From IMG/VR virus record IMGVR_UViG_2718218304_000002: a stretch of DNA of 40,150 nucleotides, one strand, 5' to 3'. Below the pieces are notes generated by a model. The model made no database searches, was not told where the DNA came from, and saw only the letters and a list, made by a program, of their open reading frames with translations. Every line of letters starts with the position of its first letter. Position 1 is the stretch's first letter. Of this stretch, positions 1,239 through 28,244 are shown in pieces. Both the position numbers and the translations under genes were made by a program. The stretch comes from a virus. Lineage: Duplodnaviria > Heunggongvirae > Uroviricota > Caudoviricetes.

Positions 1239-1753
1239 CTACGGCAGTGCTGGCCATTCAATATCCTGTGCAGTTGACGTATCAACACGGTTCAGCAATA
1301 CCCGATACTTTTTCCATGCTTCCAGCAACGAGATTTCTTCCTCCGTTGCAATTTCCAGATCTGCAGCATCCTGAAGCGGCGCAATATGCTCACTGGCTAC
1401 CTGCATCAGGTTGTTTTTTGTTTCTTCCGCCTCCCGGATCCGGAACAGTTTTTCTGCTTCCGTATCCTTCACCCAGGCTGTGCCGTTCCACTTCTGAAAC
1501 TCCCCTTCCGGCGATAACCAGGTAACATTTTCCGGTAACGGACCGAGTTCAGAAATAAATAACGCGTTGCCGGAAGCCACGTCATAAACCGTTTTACCCC
1601 GATGATCTTCAACGAGATGCCACGATGACTCATCACTGTTGAAAACAGCCACGAAGCCAGCCGGAATATCTGGCGGTGCAATATCGGTACTGTTTGCTGG
1701 CAGACCTGTATGAGGCGGAATATATGCATCACCTTCACCAATAAATTCATTAG
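1239..1753 (-). pseudogene. Tail fibre assembly protein (Tfa), 5' end replaced by IS911 terminal sequence
   Basis: ORF 1239..1802 translation has Tfa-family core ([30 protein letters not shown]...); its first ~16 codons (1754..1802) are encoded by the IS911 terminal repeat, so the native 5' end and the upstream tail-fibre gene are missing. Confidence 0.7.
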
Positions 1754-1825
1754 TGAAGTGGTTTACTGAATTTGGCCACCTGAACAGAGGTGATATGCTC
1801 ACCTCAGAACAACACAGGTGCCATA

Positions 1826-3801
<1,976 letters not shown>

Positions 3802-3873
3802 TATGGCACCTGTGTTGTTCTGAGGTGAGCATATCACCTCTGTTCAGGTGGCCAAATTCAGTAAACCACTTCA

Positions 3874-4056
3874 GTGGCTTGTGGCTGGTTTTTTCCTCCA
3901 GGCCTGACGGCTGAATACCTCACTGATCGCTTCTTTGACTGCGCCAGCTACTGGCGCATTAATCCTTTCGAATTGCTGAATATGCCGATCAGTGAAATTC
4001 CCTTACTGGTCAGTCAGGCAAACAGGATAGAGCAGGAGAAACGCACACATGGCTGA
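3874..4056 (+). pseudogene. 3' remnant of a tail gene (possibly a tail assembly chaperone) truncated by IS911
   Basis: 60-codon ORF starts with GTG immediately at the IS911 boundary and ends 8 bp into the tape-measure gene; position suggests the gene upstream of tape measure. Family not recognised. Confidence 0.3.
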
Positions 4057-5884
4057 ATTTGAGCTTAAGGCGTTGATCACCGGTGTCGACAGGCTTTCTC
4101 CCGCGCTGTCGAAAATGCAAAAGAAAATCCGGGGATTTAAACGCCAGGCGGAAGAAGCGTCACAGGGTGGGCTGGCGCTTGGTGGCGGACTGGCAGCGGG
4201 TCTGACGCTTTCCCTGAAATCTTATGCCGATCAGGAAAACGCCGCCACCGGGCTGAAAGTCGCCATGATGGATGCGAACGGCGAGGTTGGAAAGAGCTTT
4301 CAGGACATCAATAAACTGGCTATTGGCCTGGGTAACCAGCTACCCGGTACAACGGCTGATTTCCAGAACATGATGCAGATGCTGGTGCGTCAGGGGATCC
4401 CGGCAGAAAACATTCTGGGTGGTGTGGGTAAAGCGACAGCTTATCTTGCGGTACAACTGAAAAAAACACCGGAAGCGGCTGCTGAGTTTGCTGCAAAGAT
4501 GCAGGATGCTACCGGAACGGCGTCAGAAGACATGATGGGGCTGTTCGACACTATCCAGAAGGCGTTTTATCTGGGTGTTGACGATACCAACATGTTGTCC
4601 TTCTTCACTAAAACCAGCTCTGTTCTGAAGATGGTGAACAAGGACGGTCTTCAGGCTGCACAGAGCCTTGCCCCCATCAGCGTCATGATGGATCAGATGG
4701 GGATGAACGGGGAGTCGGCAGGTAACGCCCTGCGAAAAGTTATCCAGTCCGGATTAAGCGTTAAGAAAATCAGGGACGTCAATAAAATCATGGCCCGCCA
4801 GAAACTCGGGGTACAGCTCGATTTTACTGACGGCAAAGGAAGTTTTGGCGGTCTTGATAACATGTTCAGGCAACTGGCAAAGCTGCGAAAACTGACCGAC
4901 GTTAAGCGAACAGGTGTACTTAAGGCAATATTTGGTGATGATGCCGAAACCCTTCAGGTGGTCAATGCACTAATCGATAAAGGAAAGGATGGCTACGATC
5001 AGATCCAGCAGAAGATGAATAAACAGGCCAGCCTGAATAAACGTGTTCAGGCCCAGCTTGGTACGCTGTCCAACCTGTGGGAGGCAATGACGGGGACCGC
5101 AACTAACGGCCTTGCGGCTATTGGCGGCGCATTTTCTGGTGACGCCAAAAATATCACGCAATGGCTGGGGGAGTTAGGGGAAAAATTCACGAAGTTTGCG
5201 GATGAAAATCCCCGGGTTATTCGCGGCGTCGTCGGGCTTGCTGCCGGTCTTGCGATTCTGAAACTGGGATTGATGGGCGTTGGCGGTGCCATCAGTATTG
5301 TCAGCAGGATCATGTCGATGACGCCGATTGGAATGATTGCGACGGCGATAGCCCTGGCTGCGGGATTAATTATCACTAACTGGGATGTTGTCGGACCTTA
5401 TTTCAAGAAGCTCTGGGAAACCATTGGTCCTTATTTTGAGGCTGGCTGGGAACTTCTGAAGATGGTTTTTGCCTGGTCGCCGCTGGGGATGGTAATCAAT
5501 AACTGGGGACCGGTTGTTAAGTGGTTTCAGGATATGTGGGACAAACTGAAGCCAATTATTGAGTGGTTTACCGACAGTTCCGGTGACACGGTCGATGCCA
5601 TTAACTCTGCGCAGTGGGGCGCGGGTGCTTATGATGCTTATGGGACGGGAATACCGGCACGGGGATACACACCTTATCAGGCGGTAGATCCGGCTCAGTC
5701 AAACAACGCCTCCGGTGCCACAGGCCCGAATCCCTTCATGATTAACAAAGCTTCTGCGCCAAAAGTTGATGGTGAGATCAAGGTCTCTTTTGTGAATTCG
5801 CCTCCGGGTATGCGGGTTATGGAAACGCGATCCAGCGGTTTTGATGTCAGCCATGATGTTGGCTATACGCGCTTTGGCAGGTAA
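4049..5884 (+). CDS. Phage tail tape measure protein
   Basis: 611-aa ORF, Ala/Gly-rich with coiled-coil-like N-terminal half and hydrophobic central segment; followed by Mu N-like and P-like genes. AGGAG 10 nt upstream of ATG. Confidence 0.75.
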   Translation: MAEFELKALITGVDRLSPALSKMQKKIRGFKRQAEEASQGGLALGGGLAAGLTLSLKSYADQENAATGLKVAMMDANGEVGKSFQDINKLAIGLGNQLPGTTADFQNMMQMLVRQGIPAENILGGVGKATAYLAVQLKKTPEAAAEFAAKMQDATGTASEDMMGLFDTIQKAFYLGVDDTNMLSFFTKTSSVLKMVNKDGLQAAQSLAPISVMMDQMGMNGESAGNALRKVIQSGLSVKKIRDVNKIMARQKLGVQLDFTDGKGSFGGLDNMFRQLAKLRKLTDVKRTGVLKAIFGDDAETLQVVNALIDKGKDGYDQIQQKMNKQASLNKRVQAQLGTLSNLWEAMTGTATNGLAAIGGAFSGDAKNITQWLGELGEKFTKFADENPRVIRGVVGLAAGLAILKLGLMGVGGAISIVSRIMSMTPIGMIATAIALAAGLIITNWDVVGPYFKKLWETIGPYFEAGWELLKMVFAWSPLGMVINNWGPVVKWFQDMWDKLKPIIEWFTDSSGDTVDAINSAQWGAGAYDAYGTGIPARGYTPYQAVDPAQSNNASGATGPNPFMINKASAPKVDGEIKVSFVNSPPGMRVMETRSSGFDVSHDVGYTRFGR

Positions 5885-5944
5885 TGAAAAATTAATCTGT
5901 TAATGAGTCCCACTCCGGTGGGATTTTTTATGTACGGAGTTTAT

Positions 5945-7273
5945 ATGACGTGGAAAGACAGACTTCAGGACGCGTCATTTCGCGGTGTGCCGTTTAAGGT
6001 TGAAGAAGAAAGTGCGGGAACCGGTCGTCGTGTGGAAACGCACGAATACCCGAACCGCGACAAACCCTATACCGAAGACCTGGGGAAAATCACTTTCCGC
6101 CCGTCCATCACAGCTTATGTGGTGGGAGATGACTGCTTTGACCAGCGCGATCGCCTGATTGACGCGCTGAATAAACCCGGTCCCGGCACGCTTGTCCATC
6201 CGACTTACGGTGAGCTGAAAGTCTGTGTTGACGGGGAAGTTCGGGTCAGCACATCGAAGAGTGAAGGGCGTATTGTCCGCTTTGACCTGAAGTTTGTCGA
6301 AGCGGGAGAACTCTCTTACCCCACTTCAGGTGCGGCGACGGCGCAGACGCTGATGTCATCCTGTTCTGCACTGGATGACTGCATCAGTGACAGCTTCAGT
6401 GGTTTCAGTATCGATGGCGTGGCAGATTTTGTGCAGAACGACGTCGTCGGTAATGCCAGCACAATGCTTGGGTATGTTTCTGATGCGATGAAAGTGGTGG
6501 ATTCTGCCGTATCGGATGCCGCCAGGCTGTTGCAGGGGGATATCTCGGTACTTCTGCCGCCGCCATCGTCAGGCAAAAATTTCGTTGAGCAGGTGCAGAA
6601 AATGTGGCGTACCGGGAAACGCCTTTATGGTAACGCCAGCGACCTGGTCACCATGATCAAAACGCTTTCCGGTGTCAGCCTCGGCAGCGATCTGCAACCG
6701 CGCGGCGTCTGGAAAACGGACAGTAAAACCACCGCCACGGCGACGCAGCAGCGTAACGTGGTTGCCAGCACCCTTCGTACGACCGCAATCAGCGAAGCGG
6801 CGTATGCCGTCACCCGATTGCCTGCGCCAACAATTTCTGCGGTGATGCAGAATGCCGCAGTGGGGCAGGCAACAACACCCGCGCAGAGCACTGGCTGGCC
6901 TTCCGTCACGCATCCGGCACTGAACAATGCACCGGCGGTGAAAAACACGGTTGACCTGCCGACGTGGGAAGAACTGACTGACATTCGCGACACACTGAAT
7001 ACGGCAATTGATAAGGAGTTGTCCCGTACAACCAGTGATGCGCTGTTTCTGGCGCTGCGCCGGGTGAAAGCAGATCTGAATGCGGATATCAACACGCGCC
7101 TTGAACAGTCTGCACGGATCATTCAGCGCACGCCGGATGAGGTTTTACCCGCGCTGGTGCTGGCGGCGACCTGGTTTGATAACGCGGCGCGTGACGCGGA
7201 CATTATCCGGCGTAATGCCATTACACATCCCGGCTTTGTGCCGGTGATCCCTCTGAAGGTGCCAGTGCAATGA
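5945..7273 (+). CDS. DNA circulation protein (Mu N / gp43-like)
   Basis: ORF 5903..7273; start at MTWKDRL (5945) has GGAG 5 nt upstream. Assigned by recalled similarity to the Mu N family and by position between tape measure and the P/D-like gene. Confidence 0.6.
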   Translation: MTWKDRLQDASFRGVPFKVEEESAGTGRRVETHEYPNRDKPYTEDLGKITFRPSITAYVVGDDCFDQRDRLIDALNKPGPGTLVHPTYGELKVCVDGEVRVSTSKSEGRIVRFDLKFVEAGELSYPTSGAATAQTLMSSCSALDDCISDSFSGFSIDGVADFVQNDVVGNASTMLGYVSDAMKVVDSAVSDAARLLQGDISVLLPPPSSGKNFVEQVQKMWRTGKRLYGNASDLVTMIKTLSGVSLGSDLQPRGVWKTDSKTTATATQQRNVVASTLRTTAISEAAYAVTRLPAPTISAVMQNAAVGQATTPAQSTGWPSVTHPALNNAPAVKNTVDLPTWEELTDIRDTLNTAIDKELSRTTSDALFLALRRVKADLNADINTRLEQSARIIQRTPDEVLPALVLAATWFDNAARDADIIRRNAITHPGFVPVIPLKVPVQ

Positions 7274-7705
7274 ACGACAATGTCACGCTACGGGTAAATG
7301 GCCGGGAGTGGAATGGCTGGACATCGGTGCGCATCGGTGCCGGTATTGAACGGCTGGCGCGGGATTTCAGTGTGGAGATCACCCGCCAGTGGCCGGGTGA
7401 TGAGGGTATCACCACGCTTCAGCCGCGCATTAAAAACGGTTCAAAAGTGGAAGTGCTGATTGGTGATGAGCTGGTGATCACCGGCTGGGTGGAGGCGACG
7501 CCCGTTCGTTACGATGCCCGTTCGGTCAGCACCGGTATTGCCGGACGTAGTCTGACGGCTGACCTGATTGACTGTGCAGCCGAACCGACACAGTTTAACG
7601 GACGCTCGCTGGTGCAGATTGCGCAGGCGCTTGCTGCGCCTTTCGGCATTGAGGTGGTGAACAGCGGTGCGCCGTCGGGTGTTATTCCTGATGTTCAGCC
7701 TGATC
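7270..7705 (+). pseudogene. Mu P (gp44) / P2 D-like tail protein, N-terminal ~145 codons, truncated by IS66
   Basis: Start overlaps N-like stop (ATGA). Native reading ends ...GVIPDVQPD at 7705, where the IS66 terminus GTAAGCG begins; the rest of ORF 7270..7827 is IS sequence. Confidence 0.6.
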
Positions 7706-7742
7706 GTAAGCGTGCAGCAAGAACCGTATTGACGGGGATGTG

Positions 7743-9280
7743 TTATTCAGTCGGCAGTGCTACGCGCCAGGGGAGCAGTTCGCCGACCCGGTTTATCGGC
7801 CAGTCGGCTATGACGTCAAGGACATAGCGGAGGTAGCTTTCTGGCTCCACTCCGTTCAGTTTGCACGTCCCGATCAGGCTGTACAGCAGCGCTCCCCGCT
7901 CTCCTCCATGATCCGAACCGAAGAACAGGTAGTTTTTGCGGCCCAGACTGACCATCCGCAACGCATTTTCAGCGATGTTATTGTCCGCCTCAGCCCAGCC
8001 ATCATCTGCATAGTACGTCAGCGCCGGCCACTGGTTCAGGGCGTATGCGAACGCTTTCGCCAGTTCTGAGTGTCGCGACAGGGTTTTCATCTTTTCACGC
8101 AGCCAGCTTTCCAGGGATTTCAGCAGCGGTTTCGTTTTCAACTGACGTTCGGCAAGGCGCTGCTCCGCCGTCATTCCCCTTATCTCTGCCTCGATGGCGT
8201 ACAGTTCGCCGATCCGTTTCAGCGCTTCCTCCGTCAGGGCTGACGGGGTGCGAACGTGCACATCGTGGATTTTACGGCGGGCGTGAGCCCAACAGGCGGC
8301 TTCCGTTATCCGGCCATCCCGGTACAGCTCGTTGAACCCGGCGTATGCATCCGCCTGCAGTAACCACTGAACCCCGCAAGATGGGTCTGCGGATGGATGC
8401 CTTTTCTGTCCGGGCTGTAAGCGAACCACACCGCCGGCGCCAGCGTTGACCCGGCGTTACGGTCGTCACGAACGTAGGTCCATAACCGCCCGGTCTTCGT
8501 TTTCTTATTGCCTGGCAACAGCACCGGGACAGGCGTGTCATCAGCATGGAGCTTACCGTCAGTCAGCACATAGTCCTGAAGCGCTTCTTCCAGCGGTGAC
8601 AGTAGCCGGCAGCATGCATCCACCCAGCCCGACAGCAGTGAACGACTCAGCTCCACGCCCTGGCGGCCGTACATTTCAGACTGGCGGTACAGCGGGGTGT
8701 GCTCTGCATACTTTGAGATCAGCACGCGGGCCAGCAGCCCCGGTCCTGCGATACCCCGCTCGATGGGCCGTGAAGGCGCGGGGGCCTGCACGATGGCATC
8801 GCACTGAGTACAGGCATGCTTTTCACGTACAGTCCGGATAACCCGGAAGGCGCTGCGCATCAGCTCCAGCTGTTCGGCGGCATCCTCACCCAGATAGCTC
8901 AGCGAGCCTCCACATTCCGGGCAGCATGACGCTGCCGGCAGCAGCCGTTTTTCATCGCGGGGGAGTGATTCGGGGAACGGTTTGCGGGTGCGGGTTTGAC
9001 GCAGCGGGCGCTGCACGGCCGGGTCGTCAACCCGACCGGTAAGGGTATCACTTTCTTTCTGAAGTGCCTTCAGGTCAGCTTCCATCTGTGCGATACGACG
9101 GGAGACTTTTTCCGAGCGGCTGCCGAAGTTCATCCGGCGCAGCTTATCCAGCTGTGCCTGCAGATGGTCTATTTCGCGTTCACGCTCGTTCAGCTTTTCC
9201 TGCAGGGCACGGTTCAGCGCCTCCTGTTCGGCAAGGAGACGTTTCAGTGCATTGATATCGTCAGGAAGTGAGCTGCTCAT
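7743..9280 (-). pseudogene. IS66 transposase TnpC, split by a frameshift
   Basis: N-terminal ORF 8306..9280 and C-terminal ORF 7743..8429 overlap in different frames; frames switch near 8360 (...GFSGY / LQADAYAGF...). One added base would restore a single ~510-aa ORF. Confidence 0.8.
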
Positions 9281-9328
9281 ACCGGGTATATTACCAGGCT
9301 CATTCAGCGTCGACCAGGATAAAGAGGC

Positions 9329-9676
9329 TTACAACATAGTCAGGGACGTAAGCAGTCTTTTAGGCTGCCGCCAGTCGATACCTTCCAGCAGCATCGCCAG
9401 CTGTGCCGGTGTGAGGAACACTTTGCCATCCCGGGCTGACGGCCAGGCGAAGCGGCCGCGCTCCAGCCGTTTGGTCAGCAGACACAGTCCATCGCCGGTA
9501 GACCAGAGGAGCTTTACCTGACTGCCATTACGCCCACGGAAGATAAAAACGTGACCTGACATCGGATCGTCTTTCAGCGTCGTCTGCACCTTTGCCGCCA
9601 GGCCGTTGAAGCCGTTTCTCATATCGGTGATGCCAGCGACCAGCCAGATCTTTGTCCCTGATGGTAATGGGATCAA
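9329..9676 (-). CDS. IS66 accessory protein TnpB (Orf2)
   Basis: 115-aa ORF recognised as IS66 Orf2-like; overlaps tnpA stop (ATGA). Confidence 0.8.
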   Translation of the reverse strand: MIPLPSGTKIWLVAGITDMRNGFNGLAAKVQTTLKDDPMSGHVFIFRGRNGSQVKLLWSTGDGLCLLTKRLERGRFAWPSARDGKVFLTPAQLAMLLEGIDWRQPKRLLTSLTML

Positions 9677-10077
9677 CGTTTGAGCTCCCGTATCAGCAGG
9701 TTCAGGATATTTTCGCTGATGGCACCATTCAGACGGAGTGATCCGTGCCGGAACGTCACTTCACAGCTGATATTGAGTGATTCAGGTGTCGCAGCAGCTA
9801 CAGGTTGTGACCGGGGGGAGGTTGTAGGGACAACATCTTCGGCATCAAGTGTTATCGGGAGCAGCTCAGGCACGTTGTTTTCTGTTGTTGAAGGAGGACG
9901 TAGTTTTCCTTCGCGCCAGTACTGGCGCCACTTGAACAGCAAATTATCGTTGATCCCATGCTCACGAGCGAGTTGCGCTACGGAGATCTCTGGTCGATGC
10001 GAGAGTTCAACCATTTTGATTTTGAACTCAACGGGATAATTAGGGCTTTTTTTACGCACTGCGGTTAATGATTTCAT
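9673..10077 (-). CDS. IS66 accessory protein TnpA (Orf1)
   Basis: 134-aa ORF with N-terminal HTH region, first gene of the IS66 operon. Confidence 0.75.
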   Translation of the reverse strand: MKSLTAVRKKSPNYPVEFKIKMVELSHRPEISVAQLAREHGINDNLLFKWRQYWREGKLRPPSTTENNVPELLPITLDAEDVVPTTSPRSQPVAAATPESLNISCEVTFRHGSLRLNGAISENILNLLIRELKR

Positions 10078-11261
10078 GGATTGCGTCCACCATATTTGGT
10101 GTCCACTATTCTCTCAGGGAATTTCAGGATCTGCCAGACGGTGCTGAGACGACGCTTACCCATTGTATAAAGCGGCGAGTTTTCCTGCATTCGCTCTTCA
10201 TTAGTCTGATCAACAGATTTGGTGGATGTATTTTCAGCACGCAGAAGTTTAGCGCCGGCATGACGCATCTGATTTTCCAGCTTCTCAAGTGATGTTTCGC
10301 CAGATTCTATCGCTGCGCCACTATGTTCAACATATTCGAGGCCATTTTTTGTTCTGTCCTCAAAAATCGTAGCGGTGGATGCACCAACCGTCAGTTCTTC
10401 ATTCCTGTCCAGCCCGTAGGCCACCAGCAATGGAACGCGGGCAACATGAAGAATATTGTCCTGCTCGCTCTGGCTTTGCCAGTGCTTGATATTCAGCAAG
10501 CCAAGATTAAGCAATGGCGGTGTACCACGCATAAATCCTGTTTTCTTCGTGTACAGTGTTACCAGAGGAATATCATCACGGCTGGTATTCCATGACTCAT
10601 GAAGCGTCCAGACAGATTCGCCATTAGTGCCTTCGCTACGTCGATAAATTTCAACTCGACGGGGCATAATATGGCGGATCTGCTCCACCTTCTTCTGCCC
10701 GAAATCATCACCATCAATAATGATGACCTCTTTTATACGCAAATCAGTGAGAACAACTTTCCCTTTTTCAACTTTCGATTTCCATCCAATAACCTGGCGT
10801 GGATTCAGCATCGTAACGTACGGACGACCACCGGTCGCGTTTTCATCGGCTTTTGTCCGAATCTCTTTCATATCCGTTCGTGGATAGTCCACCAGCGCAT
10901 GTGCCACACCATACTGAAATGCGAGGCTGAAAAATTGCTGCGCCCACACATCCAGTCGGCTCCCCTCCATGTCGATATTTTCTGCATATTCCCTGATTTT
11001 TGCCGGCGTTTCCTCACTCAATACTGTCGGCTCTGCAAATATGCGCCCAATATTTTGCTTGATGCTTTCTTCATACACAGGAAGTAGCGTAGCCACAGAC
11101 AGGCGTTTTTTATAAGCGTCTTCATCTTCGTTAGGCCATTTTGGGAGATAATTTTCCCCCTGCCTGCGCATTTCAAGCGTACCGCCCATCAGTGCGTCGT
11201 TAATATCCCACGCCTCCAGCATATCGTTATAGTCGAGGTTGGGTGTTGATATATCAGCCAT
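10074..11261 (-). pseudogene. Putative phage portal protein, C-terminus truncated by IS66
   Basis: ORF lies directly downstream of terminase large subunit; native sequence ends at 10160 and the last ~28 codons are IS66 terminal sequence. Portal call rests on gene order and size, not a recognised motif. Confidence 0.45.
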
Positions 11262-18704: not shown

Positions 18705-19100
18705 CTAACCTCGCATGTCAAAGCCAGATTTCTGAAAATCTCTGTAGACTTCCGGATTGTTGAAGGCCGGAAATTTGGCTTTATGAGCTGCGGACTTTAT
18801 CGCTTCGCAATAGGCTTTATCACCGTTACTGGTAGATATTTTTAACGCCGTGCCATCCTGAGAGAATTCCATATGCAACCTGCATTTTTTCCCTTTCCAG
18901 TTATGCGGCTCATCAAGTTTGGCATTAATTGCAGCTCTGATTCCCCGCGCTTGCGCCCCCCATTCATCCTGATCATCCCAGCGTCCTGAACTGCAACTAC
19001 CTGTAGCAGTAGTTTTGTGGCAATCTGAAGGGTGTAAAGGTGTGCATCCCGCAACAAAACCGACCCAAAAAGTCAACATAACGATTTTCTTTAATCCCAC
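18705..19100 (-). CDS. Lipoprotein with TolA domain-III-like C-terminal domain (paralogue 2)
   Basis: 131 aa; signal peptide with lipobox VAGC; C-terminal ~85 aa align with the recalled TolA C-terminal domain (GKKCRLHMEFSQDG / YCEAIKSAAHKAKFPAFNNPEVYRDFQKSGFD). Confidence 0.6.
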   Translation of the reverse strand: MGLKKIVMLTFWVGFVAGCTPLHPSDCHKTTATGSCSSGRWDDQDEWGAQARGIRAAINAKLDEPHNWKGKKCRLHMEFSQDGTALKISTSNGDKAYCEAIKSAAHKAKFPAFNNPEVYRDFQKSGFDMRG

Positions 19101-19250
19101 TTCTTGCTCCTCAATCCATTAAAATCTCAGCAATAGTAGTTGTTACGTCCGCCACTGGCTCAGAGCTGACTATCCGCTAAATTTAGCTCAGTGCCGTAGC
19201 TGTGTCAGAACAAACCTAAGCCGAAACCGTTTATTACAAAACAATAAATA

Positions 19251-19679
19251 TCAGGGTTTACAATCCAGCACCCCATTTTGAAATACTTTATATACTTCCG
19301 GCGAAGGGGGGGCAGGTATATCAGCATTCTTTATCGCATTCATCGCTTCACGACATAAATCGAGGTCTCCACTTTCTCTTTTAACCTCCAGTAGAAGGCC
19401 ATTCGGAGCCATATGCATTCTCAGTGTACACTCTTTTCCTGAATACTTACTCGCATCCCCGAACTGTTTTTCGATGGCGCTCTTGATTTGATGGGCATAC
19501 AGACGGATATCCTCACTAACATCAGAAGTACGTTCAGATGAACTCACATACTGTGTCTCTATTGCTTTATCGGAGTAATATGATGTACGGTCATGATAAT
19601 TTGTCGATACAGCATCAGTGCACCCGATAATAATCCCACTAATAATCAACGTAAGAATTGATGCGCTACGAAAACCCAT
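19251..19679 (-). CDS. Lipoprotein with TolA domain-III-like C-terminal domain (paralogue 1)
   Basis: 142 aa; lipobox IIGC; C-terminus YAHQIKSAIEKQFGDASKYSGKECTLRMHMAPNGLLLEVKRESGDLDLCREAMNAIKNADIPAPPSPEVYKVFQNGVLDCKP closely parallels recalled TolA domain III (YAGQIKSAIESKFYDASSYAGKTCTLRIKLAPDGMLL...IPKPPSQAVYEVFKNAPLDFKP). Confidence 0.65.
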   Translation of the reverse strand: MGFRSASILTLIISGIIIGCTDAVSTNYHDRTSYYSDKAIETQYVSSSERTSDVSEDIRLYAHQIKSAIEKQFGDASKYSGKECTLRMHMAPNGLLLEVKRESGDLDLCREAMNAIKNADIPAPPSPEVYKVFQNGVLDCKP

Positions 19680-20269
19680 TTTTCCTCACATATGTCATAT
19701 AGTAAAGGATTATATATACCGTTGTTTTGGACGCTCAAACAGCGAATCAGATCAAATAAAACGCACATTTGTTAACATTTACACAAAGTCTGCGTGGGAT
19801 ATTCTGAAAGAATATCCATAATGTGGAGAGAATCTATTGAAGTGCATGGTGCCGGGTGCCTCCCGGTGAACAAAATGTTCGTGATACCTGTCGGCGACAG
19901 AAAAGGTTAATGGTATCACCCCACCGCACAGGGGGATTCACCATGCAGGAGTTTTCTTAGCAAACTCACTGCGCGCCCGGCAACTCCCAACCACATAAAA
20001 TGCGGAGTTTGTGGTATTTATGCATATAACTCGCAGGAATTATCTTAAAAAACTGATGTCGATCCGGATTAAAAAGAAGCAGGTCATCATCAGATGACTG
20101 GAAAAAAGGAAAACAAAAAATACTCATCATACAGTTTTGATTGCAGGGATGAGCCTGCTATGCACAATATGCAGAATATAAGCAAGATAAAAATATGCAG
20201 GCATATTATTTCGGATTTTGTTATTAACACAACCTTTTTAATAATCATTTGGCATACAATAAACCAGCC

Positions 20270-20300
20270 CAAAAAGAACCGCCTAAACAGGCGGTTGGTC
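20270..20300 (-). terminator. Rho-independent terminator candidate (- strand)
   Basis: Hairpin AACCGCC-TAAACA-GGCGGTT (20277-20296), followed on the - strand by CTTTTT. Confidence 0.4.
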
Positions 20301-20613
20301 AATACAAAGGATGCTTCGTCTTTATTATAGTAATCTGAGGCGTCGGGTGTCTTGTATCAGACAACATATTGTCCCGCTAAACAGCGAATTACAAACCACC
20401 CTGCAATGATCTCTCATCTCATTTTATATGAGTTGACGACATCAGGATAACGCATCATCAGCCCCTGCCAAGAAATATCAAAACTCCCGCCAGCAATGTG
20501 TTATCACAATATTGTAAAAAAAACACAGCACCGAAACTATAACTGGTCTCTGTTATAATTTGGAGCAGAAAGACCAGTTGCCCAACTAGCAGCATTCTCC
20601 CCTGCTTTCCTGA

Positions 20614-20645
20614 CGTAAAAAAACCGCATTAAGCGGTTTTTTTAC
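20614..20645. terminator. Bidirectional Rho-independent terminator downstream of the Q-like gene (tR'-like position)
   Basis: AAAAAAA-CCGC-ATTAA-GCGG-TTTTTTT: 6-bp GC stem (20622-20627 with 20633-20638) flanked by an A7 and a T7 run, so it reads as a terminator on both strands. Confidence 0.6.
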
Positions 20646-20723
20646 GATGTCCATGTCTGCAATCCGCCTCGCGATACAGCTTTGCGAAGCATAGCAAAAT
20701 TGAAGCAGTTTATACGTAAGAAA

Positions 20724-21266
20724 TCAAGCCATTTTCTCAGCAAATGATTCACGCATGGGAATATATAGGGCATACTCAGCAACAGCTAACCAATTAGCAA
20801 TCCGTTTTTCGCATGTGCTAAAACACCACTCTGGGTGTGCATCATTTAGCAATTCAGCCATTTTGCGCTTAGTCATCCCTCGCCCTTCATAGCGTTGCCG
20901 GAGAATGCAAATCAATCCTGGATGCTCTGCCAGCACCTCACTTATGACTCGATCAATACATAACGCCTCTGCATCAGTACAATGCGCCAGCCAGCTCTTT
21001 TGCTTGCCGTTGATCATCTCTCGCAAAAACGCTTCCAGCTCAGCTTTCTCTATTCCCGCTTTTTTCATTCTGCGCAGGGCTTCATTAATGGCTGTTTTCG
21101 TCAGTTTTTTGGATGCCAACAACTGATTGAACATATTCCCTGACCTGCCACCGCCAATATACGACCAGCGCCCCCACATACGTAGTTTTCCCTGAATCCA
21201 GACACTTTCCAGCGTGGTGAGGCGAAGGTGTTCTCCGCTTTTTCCTGTATTCGTTGGGTAAATCAT
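20724..21266 (-). CDS. Hypothetical phage protein; candidate late-gene regulator (Q-like by position only)
   Basis: 180 aa with Cys pairs (HCTDAEALC, WCFSTC); last nin-region gene before a terminator and the late operon. No family recognised. Confidence 0.3.
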   Translation of the reverse strand: MIYPTNTGKSGEHLRLTTLESVWIQGKLRMWGRWSYIGGGRSGNMFNQLLASKKLTKTAINEALRRMKKAGIEKAELEAFLREMINGKQKSWLAHCTDAEALCIDRVISEVLAEHPGLICILRQRYEGRGMTKRKMAELLNDAHPEWCFSTCEKRIANWLAVAEYALYIPMRESFAEKMA

Positions 21267-21553
21267 AAATGACCTTTCTTTCTCCAGATTTCTTGTGTGC
21301 GAAAACCCCCTTCAGCATGCATCAGGCGCAATTCTTCTTTGGTGTAATCGCTGGTTTTTACCCGCCCGTCGATTAGATCGTGGCATGAGCTACAGGCTAT
21401 CGCCGCCTGCATATCGTGTGGTTTTGTCGCTGTTCCGCACGTCCCCGCCAGCCTGTAATGCGCCAGCACAGAGGTTTCGGGATTGTGATTGCAGTAGCCA
21501 GGGATTCTGATCTGGCACATCTGGCCTTTAGCCGCTTTACGTAAATTCACCAT
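21263..21553 (-). CDS. YbcO-like nin-region protein (DUF1364 family)
   Basis: 96 aa; pattern ...LRKAAKGQMCQIRIPGYCNHNPETSVLAH...IACSSCHD... parallels recalled DLP12 YbcO. Confidence 0.6.
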   Translation of the reverse strand: MVNLRKAAKGQMCQIRIPGYCNHNPETSVLAHYRLAGTCGTATKPHDMQAAIACSSCHDLIDGRVKTSDYTKEELRLMHAEGGFRTQEIWRKKGHL

Positions 21554-22152
21554 TACGCAAACTCCAGTAGTTGTGCGGCCACATTTTCAACTTCCTCCTG
21601 AGAGGAGAATTTACGGAACAGAATCCAGTTCCACAGCACATTCAGTACAGATTTATAAACCTGCTGAAACTCGACTTCGTCCATATTCGCAAAAGCGATG
21701 GATTTTGCCCGACGCCCACGGCTACCGTCCGGATAAATATGCTCGGTGTAAAATCCGGCCTGAATGGTTACCCACTCGCGGAAAGCCTCAAACGACTTTA
21801 GCAACGCCGTATCCCGGGTTCTACGAGTCGCAACGGTGTTAAGGTATTGCTCTGCGGCATCACTCAGGGCTGGCGTGTGTTCCCGACCAACTGATTCGCA
21901 CAGGTAATCAACGAAACCAGACAGCAGTTCTCGTTCGCGAGGCGTGATCGCCCCACCGACCGGAGTCCAGTAATCGAATCCCAGTTGCAGGAGTTTGAAA
22001 AAACGCTTGTGGAATGCGTAGTTACGCACACGCTTAAAGTCTGCGTGTATCCACTCACCTATTTTGATTTGATGCAGAAAATCGCAACTCTCCGGCGTCG
22101 CCGGGAGAAGTAAACCAGAAGAAGTTTGTTTGACCAGTTGTATATGCGCCAT
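21553..22152 (-). CDS. Hypothetical phage nin-region protein
   Basis: 199-aa ORF with typical coding composition, stop overlapping the ybcO-like start; family not recognised with confidence. Confidence 0.45.
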   Translation of the reverse strand: MAHIQLVKQTSSGLLLPATPESCDFLHQIKIGEWIHADFKRVRNYAFHKRFFKLLQLGFDYWTPVGGAITPRERELLSGFVDYLCESVGREHTPALSDAAEQYLNTVATRRTRDTALLKSFEAFREWVTIQAGFYTEHIYPDGSRGRRAKSIAFANMDEVEFQQVYKSVLNVLWNWILFRKFSSQEEVENVAAQLLEFA

Positions 22153-22593
22153 TTCTCAATCTCTCGATGGCGCAGTGCAGCAGATGCCAGCTGTTCAGGC
22201 TGACGTATAAAGTATAAATAAACTGGTTCCAGTGTAAAGCCCCCACCTTAATGGAATAAAAACCAAACAACAGATTGCTGGGATACAAACAACGCTTATT
22301 ATTAAAAGCGGTTAAACAAATTAAATTTTAATGTTATGCAAATTTGTCAGATCACCATAATATCTCATTTGAAAACCGCTGAAATAACAGCCCTATCAGG
22401 GTTAATCATATTAAGGTGAGTAAATATGGAAAACAACAAATCTGTACATTACGTTCCTTTTTTATCTGTAATACTTTTTGTTTTATGCTGTGCGTGGGCA
22501 TTATTTTTATAAAAATATTTACAGATGAAGTAAACCCGCCAATCAGGTTAACTGTGGCTGCGTTGAGGATGCATAATACATCAGAGGTTGCGG

Positions 22594-22603
22594 GGATTTC
22601 TCC
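22594..22603. repeat. IS186 target-site duplication, left copy (GGATTTCTCC)
   Basis: Identical 10-mer flanks both IS186 ends (22594-22603 and 23943-23952). Confidence 0.85.
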
Positions 22604-23942
22604 CATAAGCGCTAACTTAAGGGTTGTGGTATTACGCCTGATATGATTTAACGTGCCGATGAATTACTCTCACGATAACTGGTCAGCAATTCTGGCCCAT
22701 ATTGGTAAGCCCGAAGAACTGGATACTTCGGCACGTAATGCCGGGGCTCTAACCCGCCGCCGCGAAATTCGTGATGCTGCAACTCTGCTACGTCTGGGGC
22801 TGGCTTACGGCCCCGGGGGGATGTCATTACGTGAAGTCACTGCATGGGCTCAGCTCCATGACGTTGCAACATTATCTGACGTGGCTCTCCTGAAGCGGCT
22901 GCGGAATGCCGCCGACTGGTTTGGCATACTTGCCGCACAAACACTTGCTGTACGCGCCGCAGTTACGGGTTGTACAAGCGGAAAGAGATTGCGTCTTGTC
23001 GATGGAACAGCAATCAGTGCGCCCGGGGGCGGCAGCGCTGAATGGCGACTACATATGGGATATGATCCTCATACCTGTCAGTTCACTGATTTTGAGCTAA
23101 CCGACAGCAGAGACGCTGAACGGCTGGACCGATTTGCGCAAACGGCAGACGAGATACGCATTGCTGACCGGGGATTCGGTTCGCGTCCCGAATGTATCCG
23201 CTCACTTGCTTTTGGAGAAGCTGATTATATCGTCCGGGTTCACTGGCGAGGATTGCGCTGGTTAACTGCAGAAGGAATGCGCTTTGACATGATGGGTTTT
23301 CTGCGCGGGCTGGATTGCGGTAAGAACGGTGAAACCACTGTAATGATAGGCAATTCAGGTAATAAAAAAGCCGGAGCTCCCTTTCCGGCACGTCTCATTG
23401 CCGTATCACTTCCTCCCGAAAAAGCATTAATCAGTAAAACCCGACTGCTCAGCGAGAATCGTCGAAAAGGACGAGTAGTTCAGGCGGAAACGCTGGAAGC
23501 AGCGGGCCATGTGCTATTGCTAACATCATTACCGGAAGATGAATATTCAGCAGAGCAAGTGGCTGATTGTTACCGTCTGCGATGGCAAATTGAACTGGCT
23601 TTTAAGCGGCTCAAAAGTTTGCTGCACCTGGATGCTTTGCGTGCAAAGGAACCTGAACTCGCGAAAGCGTGGATATTTGCTAATCTACTCGCCGCATTTT
23701 TAATTGACGACATAATCCAGCCATCGCTGGATTTCCCCCCCAGAAGTGCCGGATCCGAAAAGAAGAACTAACTCGTTGTGGAGAATAACAAAAATGGTCA
23801 TCTGGAGCTTACAGGTGGCCATTCGTGGGACAGTATCCCTGACAGCCTACAAAACGCAATTGAAGAACGCGAGGCATCGTCTTAACGAGGCACCGAGGCG
23901 TCGCATTCTTCAGATGGTTCAACCCTTAAGTTAGCGCTTATG
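22604..23942 (+). mobile_element. IS186 (IS4 family), intact, 1,339 bp
   Basis: Terminal inverted repeats CATAAGCGCTAACTTAAGGGTTG at 22604 and its reverse complement ending 23942; single transposase ORF; flanked by a 10-bp direct repeat. Confidence 0.9.
22659..23771 (+). CDS. insL: IS186 transposase
   Basis: 370 aa from MNYSHDNWSAILAHIG..., matching recalled IS186 InsL; IS4-family signature ...YRLRWQIELAFKRLK. Confidence 0.9.
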   Translation: MNYSHDNWSAILAHIGKPEELDTSARNAGALTRRREIRDAATLLRLGLAYGPGGMSLREVTAWAQLHDVATLSDVALLKRLRNAADWFGILAAQTLAVRAAVTGCTSGKRLRLVDGTAISAPGGGSAEWRLHMGYDPHTCQFTDFELTDSRDAERLDRFAQTADEIRIADRGFGSRPECIRSLAFGEADYIVRVHWRGLRWLTAEGMRFDMMGFLRGLDCGKNGETTVMIGNSGNKKAGAPFPARLIAVSLPPEKALISKTRLLSENRRKGRVVQAETLEAAGHVLLLTSLPEDEYSAEQVADCYRLRWQIELAFKRLKSLLHLDALRAKEPELAKAWIFANLLAAFLIDDIIQPSLDFPPRSAGSEKKN

Positions 23943-23964: not shown

Positions 23965-24120
23965 TTACTCCCCAAGTTCGTAAGCTGTGAAGACAGCGAC
24001 CTCCGTCTGGTCGGTTCGGATTCGTACCTCGCAGAGGTCTTTCCTCGTTACCAGTACCGTCACTATAACGGTTAAACAGATGACGATCAGGGTGATTAAC
24101 ATCGCCTTTTGCTGCTTCAT
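23965..24120 (-). CDS. hok: Hok/Gef-family type I toxin (51 aa), with in-frame upstream mok-like extension to 24177
   Basis: MKQQKAMLITLIVICLTVIVTVLVTRKDLCEVRIRTDQTEVAVFTAYELGE matches recalled HokD/RelF-type toxins; ORF 23965..24177 adds 19 upstream codons; the leader upstream (- strand) has a hok-type 5' hairpin (GAGGCTATCTGCC...GGCAGATAG). Confidence 0.8.
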   Translation of the reverse strand: MKQQKAMLITLIVICLTVIVTVLVTRKDLCEVRIRTDQTEVAVFTAYELGE

Positions 24121-24168
24121 AGCCCGCTTCTTCTTGCCTTTCAGCACGTAAGAGACTAACCTACGTTT

Positions 24169-24235
24169 GTAAGGCATAGATTGGGCCCCAGATTAATGTT
24201 AAGCCTCTTGCCGGATGCGTAATATCAACTGGGAC
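24169..24235 (+). ncRNA. Putative Sok-like antisense RNA (approximate ends)
   Basis: On + strand, opposite the mok start: -35 TTGCCT (24134-24139), 17-bp spacer, -10 TAACCT (24157-24162) give a start near 24169. The 3' end is not defined. Confidence 0.3.
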
Positions 24236-24694
24236 TTTTTCTATCTGCCTTTGGTTTTCATGCCCAAGGCAGATAGCCTCAAGCCCCCGCAGCCATACTA
24301 TTTAACCCCCTTTACTTCGCCAATATGAAATCAATCAGAAAGGCGATCCATAAGAACAATAGCAAGACAATAAATTGCCACCACAGCCGCAATAGCCAAC
24401 GCACACTTGAGAACCAGCACGACAACCTCCTGTATTGGACGTGCACCTGCCCTGATAAATATGAGGCTGTCTCGTCAGTGATTCAATACAACTATTGGGT
24501 ATAGTTTCTGTGATTTTGTTCTGTAGAAATGGAATACAACAACCAGTCACTACCAGCACTTCTTTAAATACGCCAAGTCCGACGGAAGCCAACATCTAGT
24601 CTGCTTTGAACGAGGAGCTAACTTTGGTGTATATAGAAACATAATCACTACAGGTAGTTCCGAAAAAATTTCTCTATCGTGATACTTGCTGGTT

Positions 24695-25744
24695 TTATTT
24701 TAATCTCTGTAATTTTTTACGCAGAGCATTAACTCGTCTCTGAACCCCTATTTTTGGATTAAAGCTCAAAGCTTTTTCATAGGCATCAAGAGCATCACTA
24801 AAGTTACCAAGTAAATCATTTGCTTCACCTTTGATGCGAAATGCGGCTGCAGCCCAGTCAGTTCGGTCTTTCGCTCCTTCATTAAGAGCCATTTCAATTG
24901 CTTTCAATGCTTTTTGAGCATTCTTCTCACTGGGATGTTCTCTTAAAAGCGCTCTCGCGGCCTCTACTTTAAGGTTGAAATTTCCTTTATATAGACAAGC
25001 ATCTTTATACGCTTCCACGTCAATGGGAATACCGATGGCAGTGTATCTGAAGTATCCAATATTTTTGCATTTCACTTTCAGCGATCTTAGCCCCCCATTT
25101 TCATCGAGATCGAAGAAATAACTATCAGCCCATCCATACTCAGGTTTAATGGAAAATATTGTTGTTTTTGACCACAGATTTATTACCTCAAGGATATTTC
25201 CATCTTTACCGGGCGCTGCGGCTGTCTGAACCGATGCGTATTTACCACAATGAGAAATTCCGATATTATAGATATTTGCTTCATAATGACGTCTAAACTT
25301 TTCATTTCCTTCAACATCAATAGCAATCAAATCAGCTTGCAGCGCAGAACCAAATCCAGCGTCATGAACAATATAATCACCTGTGTCAGCGACAGCAGCA
25401 TTAAATGGTCGGGCAATAGTTCTGAGCTTATGAAGGATACGAAAAGTTGGTTTATTAACTAAAACAACTGTTCCAAATCCACTTTCCCGGTGCCCTCCCC
25501 TTCCATTGCCATCAAAGTCACTACAGCCTACAACCCAATGTTTGTTTGCAGACAGATACGCCTGTCCAAAAAAATAAGGAGAATCAATAGTAAGCCAATC
25601 GTTTTCGATTGATATATTTCCGTTTTGTTTCTTGAGTTTAGGAGTTATGTTAGCTGTTAACTCATGCAAACTTGAAGGCGTCATTGTTTTTGCAGAAGTT
25701 ATCCTGGAGGTAAGCAAATTGAATAGTTGTGAAATAAATCCCAT
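24695..25744 (-). CDS. Hypothetical protein with C-terminal TPR-like repeats (349 aa)
   Basis: AT-rich ORF; AGGAG 9 nt upstream of ATG; C-terminal ~100 aa form TPR-like helical repeats; N-terminal ~250 aa unrecognised. Confidence 0.5.
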   Translation of the reverse strand: MGFISQLFNLLTSRITSAKTMTPSSLHELTANITPKLKKQNGNISIENDWLTIDSPYFFGQAYLSANKHWVVGCSDFDGNGRGGHRESGFGTVVLVNKPTFRILHKLRTIARPFNAAVADTGDYIVHDAGFGSALQADLIAIDVEGNEKFRRHYEANIYNIGISHCGKYASVQTAAAPGKDGNILEVINLWSKTTIFSIKPEYGWADSYFFDLDENGGLRSLKVKCKNIGYFRYTAIGIPIDVEAYKDACLYKGNFNLKVEAARALLREHPSEKNAQKALKAIEMALNEGAKDRTDWAAAAFRIKGEANDLLGNFSDALDAYEKALSFNPKIGVQRRVNALRKKLQRLK

Positions 25745-26122
25745 TTATAAATACTCCTGAGTAGCTTTTTTAAAACGTTGGCACTTATATGGCCCTCCGT
25801 GGACAAAGTGGATCCAAAAATGTCCATTCTATCTAAGGCCAGACGAACGTTCTGGTTGAAAATCTGAGTATCGCTTCGTCGCTAATTCGCCGTTAGACAT
25901 ATTTAACCACTTTTAGCAAAAATATGCACATTTTTCATCCAAGAAAACAAAAAATCGCCATCCGCAACAATCTGCTTGTTTTCGTTAAATTTTGACAATC
26001 ACGCCTTTTTCTTCTCGGCAGAGCTGAAAAATGCTAAAGTCGTATCTGGGTGGATTAATCGTATACATGGGAAAAGTAGATACGGAAGAAAGGGGAAAAG
26101 TAAAAGGTAGATGCAAAAGAAA

Positions 26123-26155
26123 GGTCCGCTTTGAGCGAGGAGCGGACTTGTTAAT
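26123..26155 (-). terminator. Rho-independent terminator candidate downstream of the GmrSD-like gene
   Basis: Hairpin GTCCGCT-(10 nt)-AGCGGAC followed on the - strand by CTTTCTTTT. Confidence 0.4.
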
Positions 26156-26271
26156 ATCGAGCCTATCTCGTAATGATATAATTGAAGACATGTTGTAGGC
26201 CTAGCAGGATATCCATGACTCATCAAACTGTCAGTAAAACATCCCACTTACGCCTATGTTTTATTGATAGA

Positions 26272-27954: not shown

Positions 27955-28244
27955 ATAATTGGAATCCTCTACTTTTTTAAAATTAATTTCATGCCTAAAT
28001 TAAATGGGTTCTTGCATGATATATACTGCTAATAATTATCTTGACACTTCAGGGCCACTCTTTACCACCTTTACCGATAAAATAATACAGCATTTGTTTA
28101 AGTAATGTCCGCAGCTGGCACAAAGCAGGCAACCACACTAGTTCTACCCTGTACCATAAAAATGTCAATTTACATATGAACCAATGCTATTTAAACTAAA
28201 AATACCTATAAATGCAGCATGATTCACTGATAAAATGCCAATAT

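Follow-up and report, generated by a model that had tools for sequence, protein, structure and literature searches.

Contractile-tail genes in the Rac prophage of Escherichia coli D4: a probable assembly duplicate of an SfV-type remnant at thrW

A block of contractile-tail genes lies within the Rac prophage in the chromosome record of E. coli D4, bounded on one side by a kilobase-sized perfect palindrome of ISEc52 and on the other by a hybrid copy of ISEc22. The structure is probably an artefact of long-read assembly, in which the tail-gene fragment is a duplicate of an SfV-type prophage remnant at thrW; we put the probability of this reading at about 0.6. The 3.83-kb block itself, orf13'-orf14-orf15-orf16', is inert cargo made up of dead remnants.

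The window, by which we mean the whole 40,150-nucleotide stretch of DNA analysed, covers the part of Rac in D4 that reaches from ydfK to intR (NZ_CP010143.1, PGAP annotation). The element is recognisable as Rac in the D4 record from its ttcA-adjacent intR and from recET, racR, trkG, pinR and ydfK, all annotated by PGAP. The features discussed below are as follows.

1239-1753, minus strand: tfaR-like Rac tail-fibre assembly gene, its 5' end removed by ISEc52 (Pfam Caudo_TAP, 2.3e-43)
1754-2813, plus strand: ISEc52 arm A (IS3 family, IS911-like), from IRL to element position 1060, joined to the Rac flank
2814-3873, minus strand: ISEc52 arm B, reverse-complementary to arm A at every position, joined to the tail fragment
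3874-4056, plus strand: tail-assembly chaperone remnant (SfV orf13 region), a 60-aa ORF
4049-5884, plus strand: tail tape measure gene, complete (SfV orf14 homologue), 611 aa (PhageMin_Tail, PF10145, 1.3e-26; PGAP WP_073503187.1)
5903-7273, plus strand: DNA-circularization/Mu gpN-like tail protein gene, complete (SfV orf15 homologue), 456 aa (DNA_circ_N, PF07157, 6.9e-34)
7270-7705, plus strand: Mu gpP/gp44-like baseplate hub gene (SfV orf16 homologue), N-terminal 145 of its 359 codons, truncated by ISEc22
7706-10159, minus strand: ISEc22 (IS66 family), with tnpA at 9673-10077, tnpB at 9329-9676 and tnpC at 7743-9280 (Pfam IS66 domains)
10160-11261, minus strand: Rac portal gene, DUF4055 type, N-terminal approximately 367 of 468 codons, cut by ISEc22 (PF13264, 2.5e-36)

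The tail-gene fragment and its source

An earlier, sequence-only reading of this DNA had placed a tape measure gene, an N-like gene and a P-like gene cut short after about 145 codons on the plus strand, opposite the packaging and lysis genes of the surrounding prophage. The ORFs, Pfam matches and PGAP annotation bear this out, and the minus-strand genes are the portal, terminases, trkG and lysis genes of D4 Rac. As that reading also held, the genes of the window no longer include a complete tail module: sheath, tube, V, W, J, I and fibre genes are absent from its ORFs and PGAP annotation.

At the left end of the fragment, window position 3874 aligns to position 20001 of locus L002, within a CDS annotated as 'phage tail assembly protein' (19765-20034). 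The chaperone remnant consists of the final 34 nt of this gene (stop at 3905-3907) and an overlapping extension ORF; it contains ggttttttc at 3887-3895, which from its sequence is a likely -1 frameshift site of the G/GT type. The start of the DNA-circularization gene is placed at 5945 by PGAP, as against 5903 for the ORF. At the right end, the hub remnant is read in an ORF at 7270-7827 on the plus strand, which matches the Pfam families GpP-like_1st (4e-24) and Gp44-like_2nd (7e-14); PF21683 and PF22255 are among the Pfam families of the fragment. The undivided hub gene is 1080 nt long in L002.

Homology to complete prophages puts the fragment borders at exactly 3874 and 7705 (99.4% identity to O157 prophages). 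IS elements bound the segment at these two positions, as had been proposed: the IRL end of the IS3-family element ISEc52 (the PGAP name; the element is IS911-like) lies at 3873, and the GTAAGCG end of the IS66-family element ISEc22 lies at 7706.

Over its 3,832 bp the fragment has 98.0-98.5% nucleotide identity to SfI, SfII and SfV, with 100% query coverage and colinear gene order (orf13-orf16). Isolate F1267 has a complete homologous prophage in the interval from thrW to paoD, and O157 has one at its e14 locus. Phages of the SfI type are lambdoid, have contractile tails and integrate at thrW beside proA (PMC3636060). Judged by these relatives, the donor is a lambdoid myovirus of the SfV/SfI/e14 type, with an HK97-type head, a tyrosine integrase, a Mu-like tail module and a thrW site. 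The suggestion that the segment came from another, Mu-like prophage is correct as to another prophage and mistaken as to its kind. A transposable Mu-like donor was considered and rejected: the complete relatives are of the SfV/e14 type, with a P27-type terminase, HK97 protease and capsid, and integrase sites at a tRNA gene or e14, and their Mu-like character is restricted to the tail module.

The genes of the fragment belong to a well-characterised phage family, and IS-driven shuffling between prophages is textbook prophage decay. A contractile-tail fragment inside a lambdoid prophage should not be taken here for a novel hybrid phage or a tailocin.

The host prophage and its intact relatives

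Intact Rac-type prophages with matching packaging genes (99.7-99.9% identical) are found in strain MB56 and in phage vB_EcoS-666R9, both of which have an uncut 468-aa portal gene. Beyond terS, terL and portal, these run on into a lambda-like siphovirus tail (tube, YdaY, a long H-type tape measure, M, L, K, I, J, Lom and StfR); tail genes of the Mu type are thus not native to Rac. No complete relative with tape measure, N and P genes beside these packaging genes, the arrangement that the sequence-only reading had named as fatal to its proposal, was found.

The same relatives bear on the idea, put forward in that reading, that an IS-mediated inversion had turned resident Rac genes around. Recombination between IS elements inverting Rac's own tail module in place would account for a fragment opposed to the packaging genes with an IS element at each end. 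However, the tape measure of the intact Rac-type tail is long and unrelated, the bounding elements come from two families, IS3 and IS66, rather than being inverted copies of one IS, and it is at thrW that the fragment has its native colinear context, with the remaining part of the hub gene. The thrW context and the intact relatives MB56 and vB_EcoS-666R9 refute this explanation, to which we attach a negligible probability.

Strain D9 is near-clonal to D4, with 1 substitution across approximately 68 kb compared. In the Rac prophages of both strains every head and tail gene from portal to tfa is deleted. The called tfaR-like ORF of the window (1239-1802) borrows its start codon from within ISEc52, whose IRL begins at 1754, and the tfaR-like gene of D9 is flagged 'missing N-terminus' by PGAP. 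The tail fragment and the palindrome structure are absent from D9 Rac. There, ISEc52 and ISEc22 are approximately 256 bp apart, an interval made up of the 3' end of ISEc52 and 58 bp of the portal gene, and it is in place of this interval that the window unit stands.

The native copy at thrW

The order at thrW in D4 is int'–ISEc52–fragment–ISEc22 with an 8-bp target duplication–remaining hub gene and baseplate genes. The rest of the hub gene (L005, 14260-14913) lies beside the other end of this ISEc22, and the reciprocal junction that the sequence-only reading had proposed to look for is thus present in D4. The thrW remnant keeps V, W, J, ymfQ, fibre and tfa genes; sheath and tube are missing at both thrW and Rac. 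This copy is also present in D9, and it is the thrW copies of D4 and D9, not the window copy, that occupy the location at thrW and proA. At thrW, ISEc52 has deleted the stretch from integrase to chaperone, and ISEc22 has entered the hub gene by simple insertion.

Window positions 2814-10159 differ from the D4 thrW copy by 0 substitutions and 3 one-base indels over 7.35 kb. On this alignment we take the window block to be a second copy of the thrW unit, comprising ISEc52 (1-1060), the fragment and ISEc22. Because the remainder of the hub gene at thrW belongs to an intact simple insertion with its target duplication, the window copy is a duplicate and not a translocation.

A hybrid ISEc22 at the right boundary

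ISEc22 interrupts two genes in the window, the hub gene and the Rac portal gene. Its GTAAGCG terminal repeats and three genes are present, and the identical 8-bp duplication of a simple insertion is absent: the left flank, GCCTGATC, is the duplication of the thrW site and the right flank, CCATTGTA, is that of the Rac portal site. The thrW ISEc22 has GCCTGATC on both sides and the D9 Rac ISEc22 has CCATTGTA on both sides. Since the flanks differ in the window while the other two copies have matching duplications, we conclude that the window ISEc22 is a recombinant. Mismatched target duplications on a hybrid IS are a classical sign of exchange between IS copies. The crossover point within the element is not mappable, as the four copies in D4 and D9 show single-base indels only and no substitutions. 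A 1-nt deletion at 8362, private to the window copy, disrupts its tnpC gene.

These flanks also speak to transposition of ISEc52, fragment and ISEc22 as a composite transposon, an explanation suggested by the presence of IS elements bracketing the fragment at both locations. It is contradicted by the two IS families, which have different transposases, and by the missing target-site duplication around the unit (flanks cattag and ccattgta). Moreover, the Rac-side flank of ISEc22 is the duplication of a pre-existing Rac insertion, and the ISEc52 side finishes in a truncated palindrome with no IS end. We regard movement of the unit by transposase as very improbable.

The ISEc52 palindrome at the left boundary

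The sequence-only reading had an IS911 element at the left of the fragment. The element is indeed IS911-like; it is not a single element, however, but two truncated copies that together form a perfect palindrome of 2,120 bp. A repeat search defines this as 2 × 1060 nt, 100% complementary, with a spacer of 0 nt and the centre at CTGAA/TTCAG. Arm A contains HTH_Tnp_1 and rve domains, lacks approximately 200 bp at the 3' end together with IRR, and is the same as the D9 Rac copy through position 1060; arm B is colinear with the thrW copy. A complete ISEc52 (IRL, IRR, orfA, full orfB, approximately 1.26 kb) is represented by neither arm, since both end at position 1060 with no IRR; PGAP records 'incomplete, missing C-terminus'. 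The palindrome, the second copy of the fragment at thrW and the cut made by ISEc22 in the portal gene had escaped the earlier reading.

There is no microhomology at the palindrome centre, natural ISEc52 continuing with GAACGAATGG past position 1060. The natural element has an 8-bp quasi-palindrome with a 4-nt loop, TTCTTCAG-GAGT-CTGAAGAA, and the centre does not fall at the loop of this hairpin. It does coincide with an internal TGAAG, the first 5 nt of IRL, though 4 nt off register; this is probably chance.

A mirrored junction with no spacer marks a fold-back, which may be biological or may arise in library preparation. We know of no kilobase-sized perfect palindrome in a natural E. coli chromosome. 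The structure was found in no genome other than D4 among 5,426 complete E. coli genomes, the 30-nt centre gave 0 matches in metagenome and GTDB contig collections, and the ORF crossing the centre had no exact-protein match with either V or M as first residue. In PMC4787754, the largest palindromes studied in vivo are approximately 246 bp, and Leach-laboratory work is cited for cleavage of long palindromes in the E. coli chromosome by SbcCD. A disrupted sbcCD as stabiliser of the palindrome was ruled out, as sbcC and sbcD are both intact in D4.

Origin of the structure

Two joins attach the unit at Rac. The first is an exchange somewhere within the 2.45-kb ISEc22, as the hybrid target-site flanks show. 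The second is a fold-back in which the thrW-side and Rac-side copies of ISEc52 meet tail-to-tail at an identical internal position, giving the zero-spacer palindrome. The ISEc52 copies are oppositely oriented relative to the ISEc22 copies, so that an ordinary double crossover is excluded and a strand flip is needed. Most likely, both the exchange and the strand flip occurred in silico, when the long-read assembly tracked the IS repeats and took in a fold-back chimeric read. The true Rac locus of D4 would then resemble that of D9.

We favour an artefact because the palindrome is perfect, because D9 has no tail fragment at Rac and because sbcCD is intact in D4. In addition, all differences between copies, including the private one 'frameshifting' tnpC in the window, are single-base indels, a pattern that is typical of long-read consensus error and suggests that long-read data underlie CP010143. 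Against this, an error in the overlap graph alone gives no strand flip, and acceptance of a fold-back chimeric read is required; the D4 record, moreover, has cleared the RefSeq checks and is that of a finished, circular chromosome. An artefact was not among the alternatives of the sequence-only reading.

A genuine subpopulation in which the DNA between the two oppositely oriented ISEc22 copies is inverted may have contributed to the misassembly. In one sub-case of the artefact, which we consider unlikely, the culture would have been a mixture of two isomers related by a 1.19-Mb inversion between the thrW and Rac ISEc22 copies; the hub'–ISEc22–portal' junction would be real in a subpopulation, and the palindrome and apparent duplication would be constructs of the assembler. 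The two chromosomal ISEc22 copies, each 2.45 kb, lie in opposite orientations, and recombination between them would yield exactly the right-hand junction of the window. However, the D4 assembly otherwise follows the order of D9 from one locus to the other, and the two loci share a coordinate offset of approximately 172.5 kb.

The main competitor to an artefact is a very recent fold-back or template-switch duplication in vivo in the D4 lineage, which we hold to be possible and the less probable. A break in or near the Rac ISEc52, with fold-back or strand switch, would have been followed by break-induced replication back along ISEc52 and a homology switch to the thrW ISEc52; copying would then have proceeded through the tail fragment into the thrW ISEc22, with a homology return to the Rac ISEc22, leaving 7.35 kb duplicated in inverted orientation and joined by a palindrome. 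Template-switching replication between IS copies would produce just this combination of hybrid flanks on ISEc22 and mirrored breakpoints at one identical position, RecE and RecT are encoded by the Rac prophage itself, the absence of substitutions between copies is compatible with a very recent origin, and the chromosome is closed. For E. coli, inverted duplications that start at palindromes have been described (Darmon et al. 2010, as cited in PMC4787754). Recombination-proficient E. coli can keep perfect palindromes of 246 bp, which makes a real palindrome conceivable. On the other hand, intact SbcCD should cut a 2.1-kb perfect palindrome at each replication, and the rapid central deletions expected are not seen. 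The centre has no microhomology, three template switches are needed, and the structure is absent from near-clonal D9 and from every other genome and contig collection searched. Overall, we infer that the join is artefactual.

The D4 RefSeq chromosome is, on this assessment, probably misassembled locally, with a block of 7.35 kb present twice and a perfect palindrome of kilobase size, which would mislead analyses of prophages, IS copy number and structural variation. If the palindrome is real, it would be a rare case in nature of IS copies giving rise to a palindrome while SbcCD is active. If palindrome and duplication are both real, they would provide a snapshot, in a natural sbcCD-positive isolate, of a fold-back or break-induced replication event that jumped between IS copies at a distance of 1.19 Mb, at a stage when decay driven by SbcCD had not yet set in.

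Comparison with known systems

The host element resembles K-12 Rac and its intact relatives, such as vB_EcoS-666R9, in having intR beside ttcA, recET, racR, ydaS-V and trkG, and further in its ParB-like gene, terS, terL and DUF4055 portal genes, tfa, pinR and ydfK. Like K-12 Rac, D4 Rac has decayed through IS insertions and deletions. It differs from the intact relatives in that their native tail is lambda-like and non-contractile, whereas the interval from portal to tfa has been emptied in D4 and D9.

With the Shigella flexneri serotype-converting myoviruses SfV, SfI and SfII and the e14-locus prophages, the fragment shares the gene order chaperone, tape measure, DNA-circularization, hub, and the native copy in D4 and D9 occupies the SfV/SfI attachment site, thrW beside proA (PMC3636060). 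Unlike these phages, the window keeps 3.8 kb only, without sheath, tube, baseplate, fibre, head or early genes, and its copy lies not at thrW but reversed within another prophage, Rac, between ttcA and ydfK. The likeness to bacteriophage Mu is in the contractile tail type and in DNA_circ_N and the GpP-like and Gp44-like domains, which are the Mu N and P families. In contrast to Mu, the donor is non-transposable, and its complete relatives carry a tyrosine integrase, a terminase, an HK97-type head and a lambdoid early region.

The tail fragment and its host element

The window is identical to the chromosome of Escherichia coli D4, a dog isolate (NZ_CP010143.1, assembly GCF_001900655.1; window position x corresponds to record position 1,874,855 - x), and covers the whole of the Rac prophage, which is the host element of the tail fragment at 3874-7705.

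Principal features of the window
Left end of the window: ydfK, pinR, tfa
4049-5884, + strand: tape measure, 611 aa (PhageMin_Tail, 1.3e-26)
5903-7273, + strand: DNA-circularization protein, Mu-N-like (DNA_circ_N, 6.9e-34)
7270 onward, + strand: baseplate hub, Mu P/gp44-like (GpP-like_1st, 4e-24; Gp44-like_2nd, 7e-14)
7706-10159: IS66-family element ISEc22, GTAAGCG terminus
Next in window order, - strand: portal, terL, terS, ParB-like gene, trkG, lysis genes
After the lysis genes: ydaV-ydaS, racR, sieB, kilR, recE, recT region
38915-40150: intR, adjoining ttcA

The sequence-only reading had described a Mu-like contractile-tail segment between IS911 and IS66, and its coordinates and gene calls were borne out. 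The open reading frames are as described, the Pfam matches agree, and homology to complete prophages ends at exactly 3874, 34 nt ahead of the stop of a tail-assembly gene, and at exactly 7705, at codon 145 of the 359-codon hub gene. The boundary on the left is the IRL of the IS3-family, IS911-like element ISEc52, and that on the right is ISEc22. The Rac portal gene (DUF4055) is also cut by ISEc22, with ~367 of its 468 codons left. Because sheath, tube, baseplate wedge and fibre genes are missing from the window, neither a tail nor a tailocin can be assembled from the three tail genes, which are passenger remnants and for which we propose no function. The truncated tail-assembly gene has a ggttttttc run (3887-3895) shortly before its stop (3905-3907), and this sequence resembles the programmed -1 frameshift of G/GT type that is conserved in tail chaperones; an ORF at 3874-4056 overlaps the end of this gene and reaches into the start of the tape measure.

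Elsewhere in Rac, a low-GC (34-39%) cargo island at 24000-28000 separates the late-gene regulator region from the replication genes. Its contents are a GmrSD-type type IV restriction-like gene (26272-27954, - strand; Pfam GmrSD_N/GmrSD_C; PADLOC HEC-06, 3.8e-221), a TPR protein (24695-25744) and hok/gef (23965-24120), and an IS421 insertion (22659-23771) adjoins it. Directly upstream of the essD-rrrD-Rz lysis cassette, two small ORFs (18705-19079 and 19251-19679, - strand) encode TolA C-terminal domains (Pfam, 1.1e-14 and 5.5e-23). The same pair is found in strain MB56, and we speculate that the products could act as decoys when filamentous phages or colicins bind TolA during entry. The ydaT gene (31045-31466) is annotated as frameshifted both in D4 and in its near-clonal sister strain D9, which may represent a real pseudogene or a homopolymer error common to the two.

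Relatives of the fragment

Along all of its 3,832 bp, the fragment shares 98.0-98.5% identity with orf13-orf16 of SfI, SfII and SfV, serotype-converting phages of Shigella; it is 99.4% identical to an e14-locus prophage of O157:H7. On the strength of these identities, its genes are assigned to the SfV/SfI tail module. A transposable Mu-like phage was rejected as the donor, the fragment's relatives being lambdoid myoviruses that combine HK97-type heads with Mu-like tail modules. The tRNA gene thrW, next to proA, is the integration site of SfI-type phages (PMC3636060). In isolate F1267, a complete prophage of the fragment's type neighbours paoD, in the region bordering the D4 and D9 remnant at thrW on its far side, and has the order terminase, portal, protease, capsid, sheath, tube, chaperone, tape measure, N, P, V, gp46, J, YmfQ, fibre, Tfa.

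The terS/terL/portal block of the window was found, at a coverage of at least 80%, in 741 E. coli genomes and ~10 phage records. Two of these, strain MB56 (Rac locus) and phage vB_EcoS-666R9, were read beyond the block, and in both it is followed by head genes and then by a lambda-like non-contractile tail (tube, YdaY, an H-type tape measure of ~1,000 codons, M, L, K, I, J, Lom and StfR). An inversion of resident Rac genes, as had been suggested from the sequence, therefore fails as an explanation, since the native tail next to the packaging genes is lambda-like; nor was a complete relative with the fragment's tail genes beside these packaging genes present among those sampled. The fragment is not part of Rac.

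The thrW and Rac loci in D9 and D4

Comparison with D9 (NZ_CP010152.1), which differs from D4 by 1 substitution in the ~68 kb compared, is decisive for the fragment's place: in D9 the fragment sits at thrW and is absent from Rac.

Gene order in D9
thrW locus: proA, thrW, int', ISEc52, (chaperone', TMP, N, hub'), ISEc22, ('hub, V, gp46, J, ymfQ, fibre, tfa)
Rac locus: portal', ISEc22 with CCATTGTA on both sides, 58 bp more of portal, full ISEc52, 'tfa

At thrW in D9, ISEc22 interrupts the hub gene as a simple insertion bracketed by the 8-bp duplication GCCTGATC. The 58 bp of portal gene between ISEc22 and ISEc52 at D9 Rac (25936-25993 of that locus) include the second copy of CCATTGTA and are missing from the window. 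Their survival shows that the first event at Rac was likewise a simple insertion of ISEc22, here into the portal gene. A deletion associated with ISEc52 came later and took out head and tail genes as far as tfa, ~20 kb in all. In D4 the thrW locus is intact and the same as in D9, so that the copy in the window is an additional one; window 2814-10159 and the D4 thrW copy are separated by 0 substitutions and 3 single-base indels over 7.35 kb.

Downstream of its SfV-type tail-fibre genes, the thrW remnant of both strains encodes a sugar acetyltransferase of the NeuD/PglB/VioB family together with a MaoC dehydratase (~19091-23843 of the D4 locus). Sf phages have O-antigen-modifying genes at the matching position, and by this analogy the pair may be serotype-modifying cargo.

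Structure of the junctions

The ISEc22 copy in the window is flanked by the thrW-type GCCTGATC on the left and the Rac-type CCATTGTA on the right, and is thus a recombinant of the thrW and Rac copies, hybrid IS elements being a classical footprint of exchange between copies. A homologous double crossover could not have transplanted the fragment, because ISEc52 at thrW and at Rac points in opposite directions relative to the ISEc22 copies.

At the left boundary an IS911-like element is present, as the sequence-only reading held, but as two joined copies and not one. Positions 1754-2813 and 2814-3873 each correspond to ISEc52 from IRL to position 1060 (1,060 bp), arranged tail-to-tail and lacking the last ~200 bp and IRR. 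With 100% complementarity between the arms and no spacer, 1754-3873 is a perfect palindrome of 2,120 bp, centred between CTGAA and TTCAG. The centre has no microhomology, the natural element continuing from CTGAA into GAACGAATGG, and does not lie at the loop of a nearby natural quasi-palindrome. It overlaps an internal TGAAG, identical to the first 5 nt of IRL, an unexplained coincidence that is probably due to chance. What is seen is a strand flip, a fold-back, placed at the same internal position in the two ISEc52 copies. Such joints are made by biological fold-back or template-switching break-induced replication, and also by chimeric fold-back molecules or reads in long-read libraries, which the assembler stitches to another IS copy.

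We lean towards the second origin, and put the probability that the fold-back join and the duplicate at Rac are an assembly artefact at about 0.6. A kilobase-sized perfect palindrome with zero spacer is an SbcCD substrate at every replication, and both sbcC and sbcD are intact in D4, yet no central deletion or asymmetry has accumulated. Cleavage of long palindromes by SbcCD is treated in Leach-laboratory work listed in PMC4787754. Unless it is an assembly artefact, the palindrome is a very unusual and unstable structure. The D4 structure was not found in the other 5,425 complete E. coli genomes, the 30-nt centre had no match in metagenome or GTDB contig collections, and an exact-protein look-up of the ORF spanning it gave none. 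This uniqueness to one assembly favours an artefact, as does near-clonal D9, in which the arrangement is the simple ancestral one and both target duplications are preserved. Among the repeat copies of the two strains, moreover, all differences are single-base indels, suggesting consensus errors and not mutations, and pointing to a long-read consensus of limited quality in repeats. Relative to the three other D4 and D9 copies, the ISEc22 of the window has a private 1-base deletion at 8362, which breaks tnpC into ORFs 7743-8429 and 8306-9280, and a private 1-base insertion at 10117.

Against these points, the D4 chromosome record is closed, inverted duplications are known to arise when replication switches template between IS copies, and recombination-proficient cells tolerate perfect palindromes of 246 bp; an in vivo event seems to us the less likely of the two. 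A less probable variant of the artefact reading is a culture with two chromosome isomers that differ by a 1.19-Mb inversion, its ends being the inverted ISEc22 copies, in which case the hub'-ISEc22-portal' junction would be real in a subpopulation and the palindrome still artefactual.

Comparison with known systems

A genuine palindrome, which we consider doubtful, is the sole reading that carries some novelty. There is no new kind of system here.
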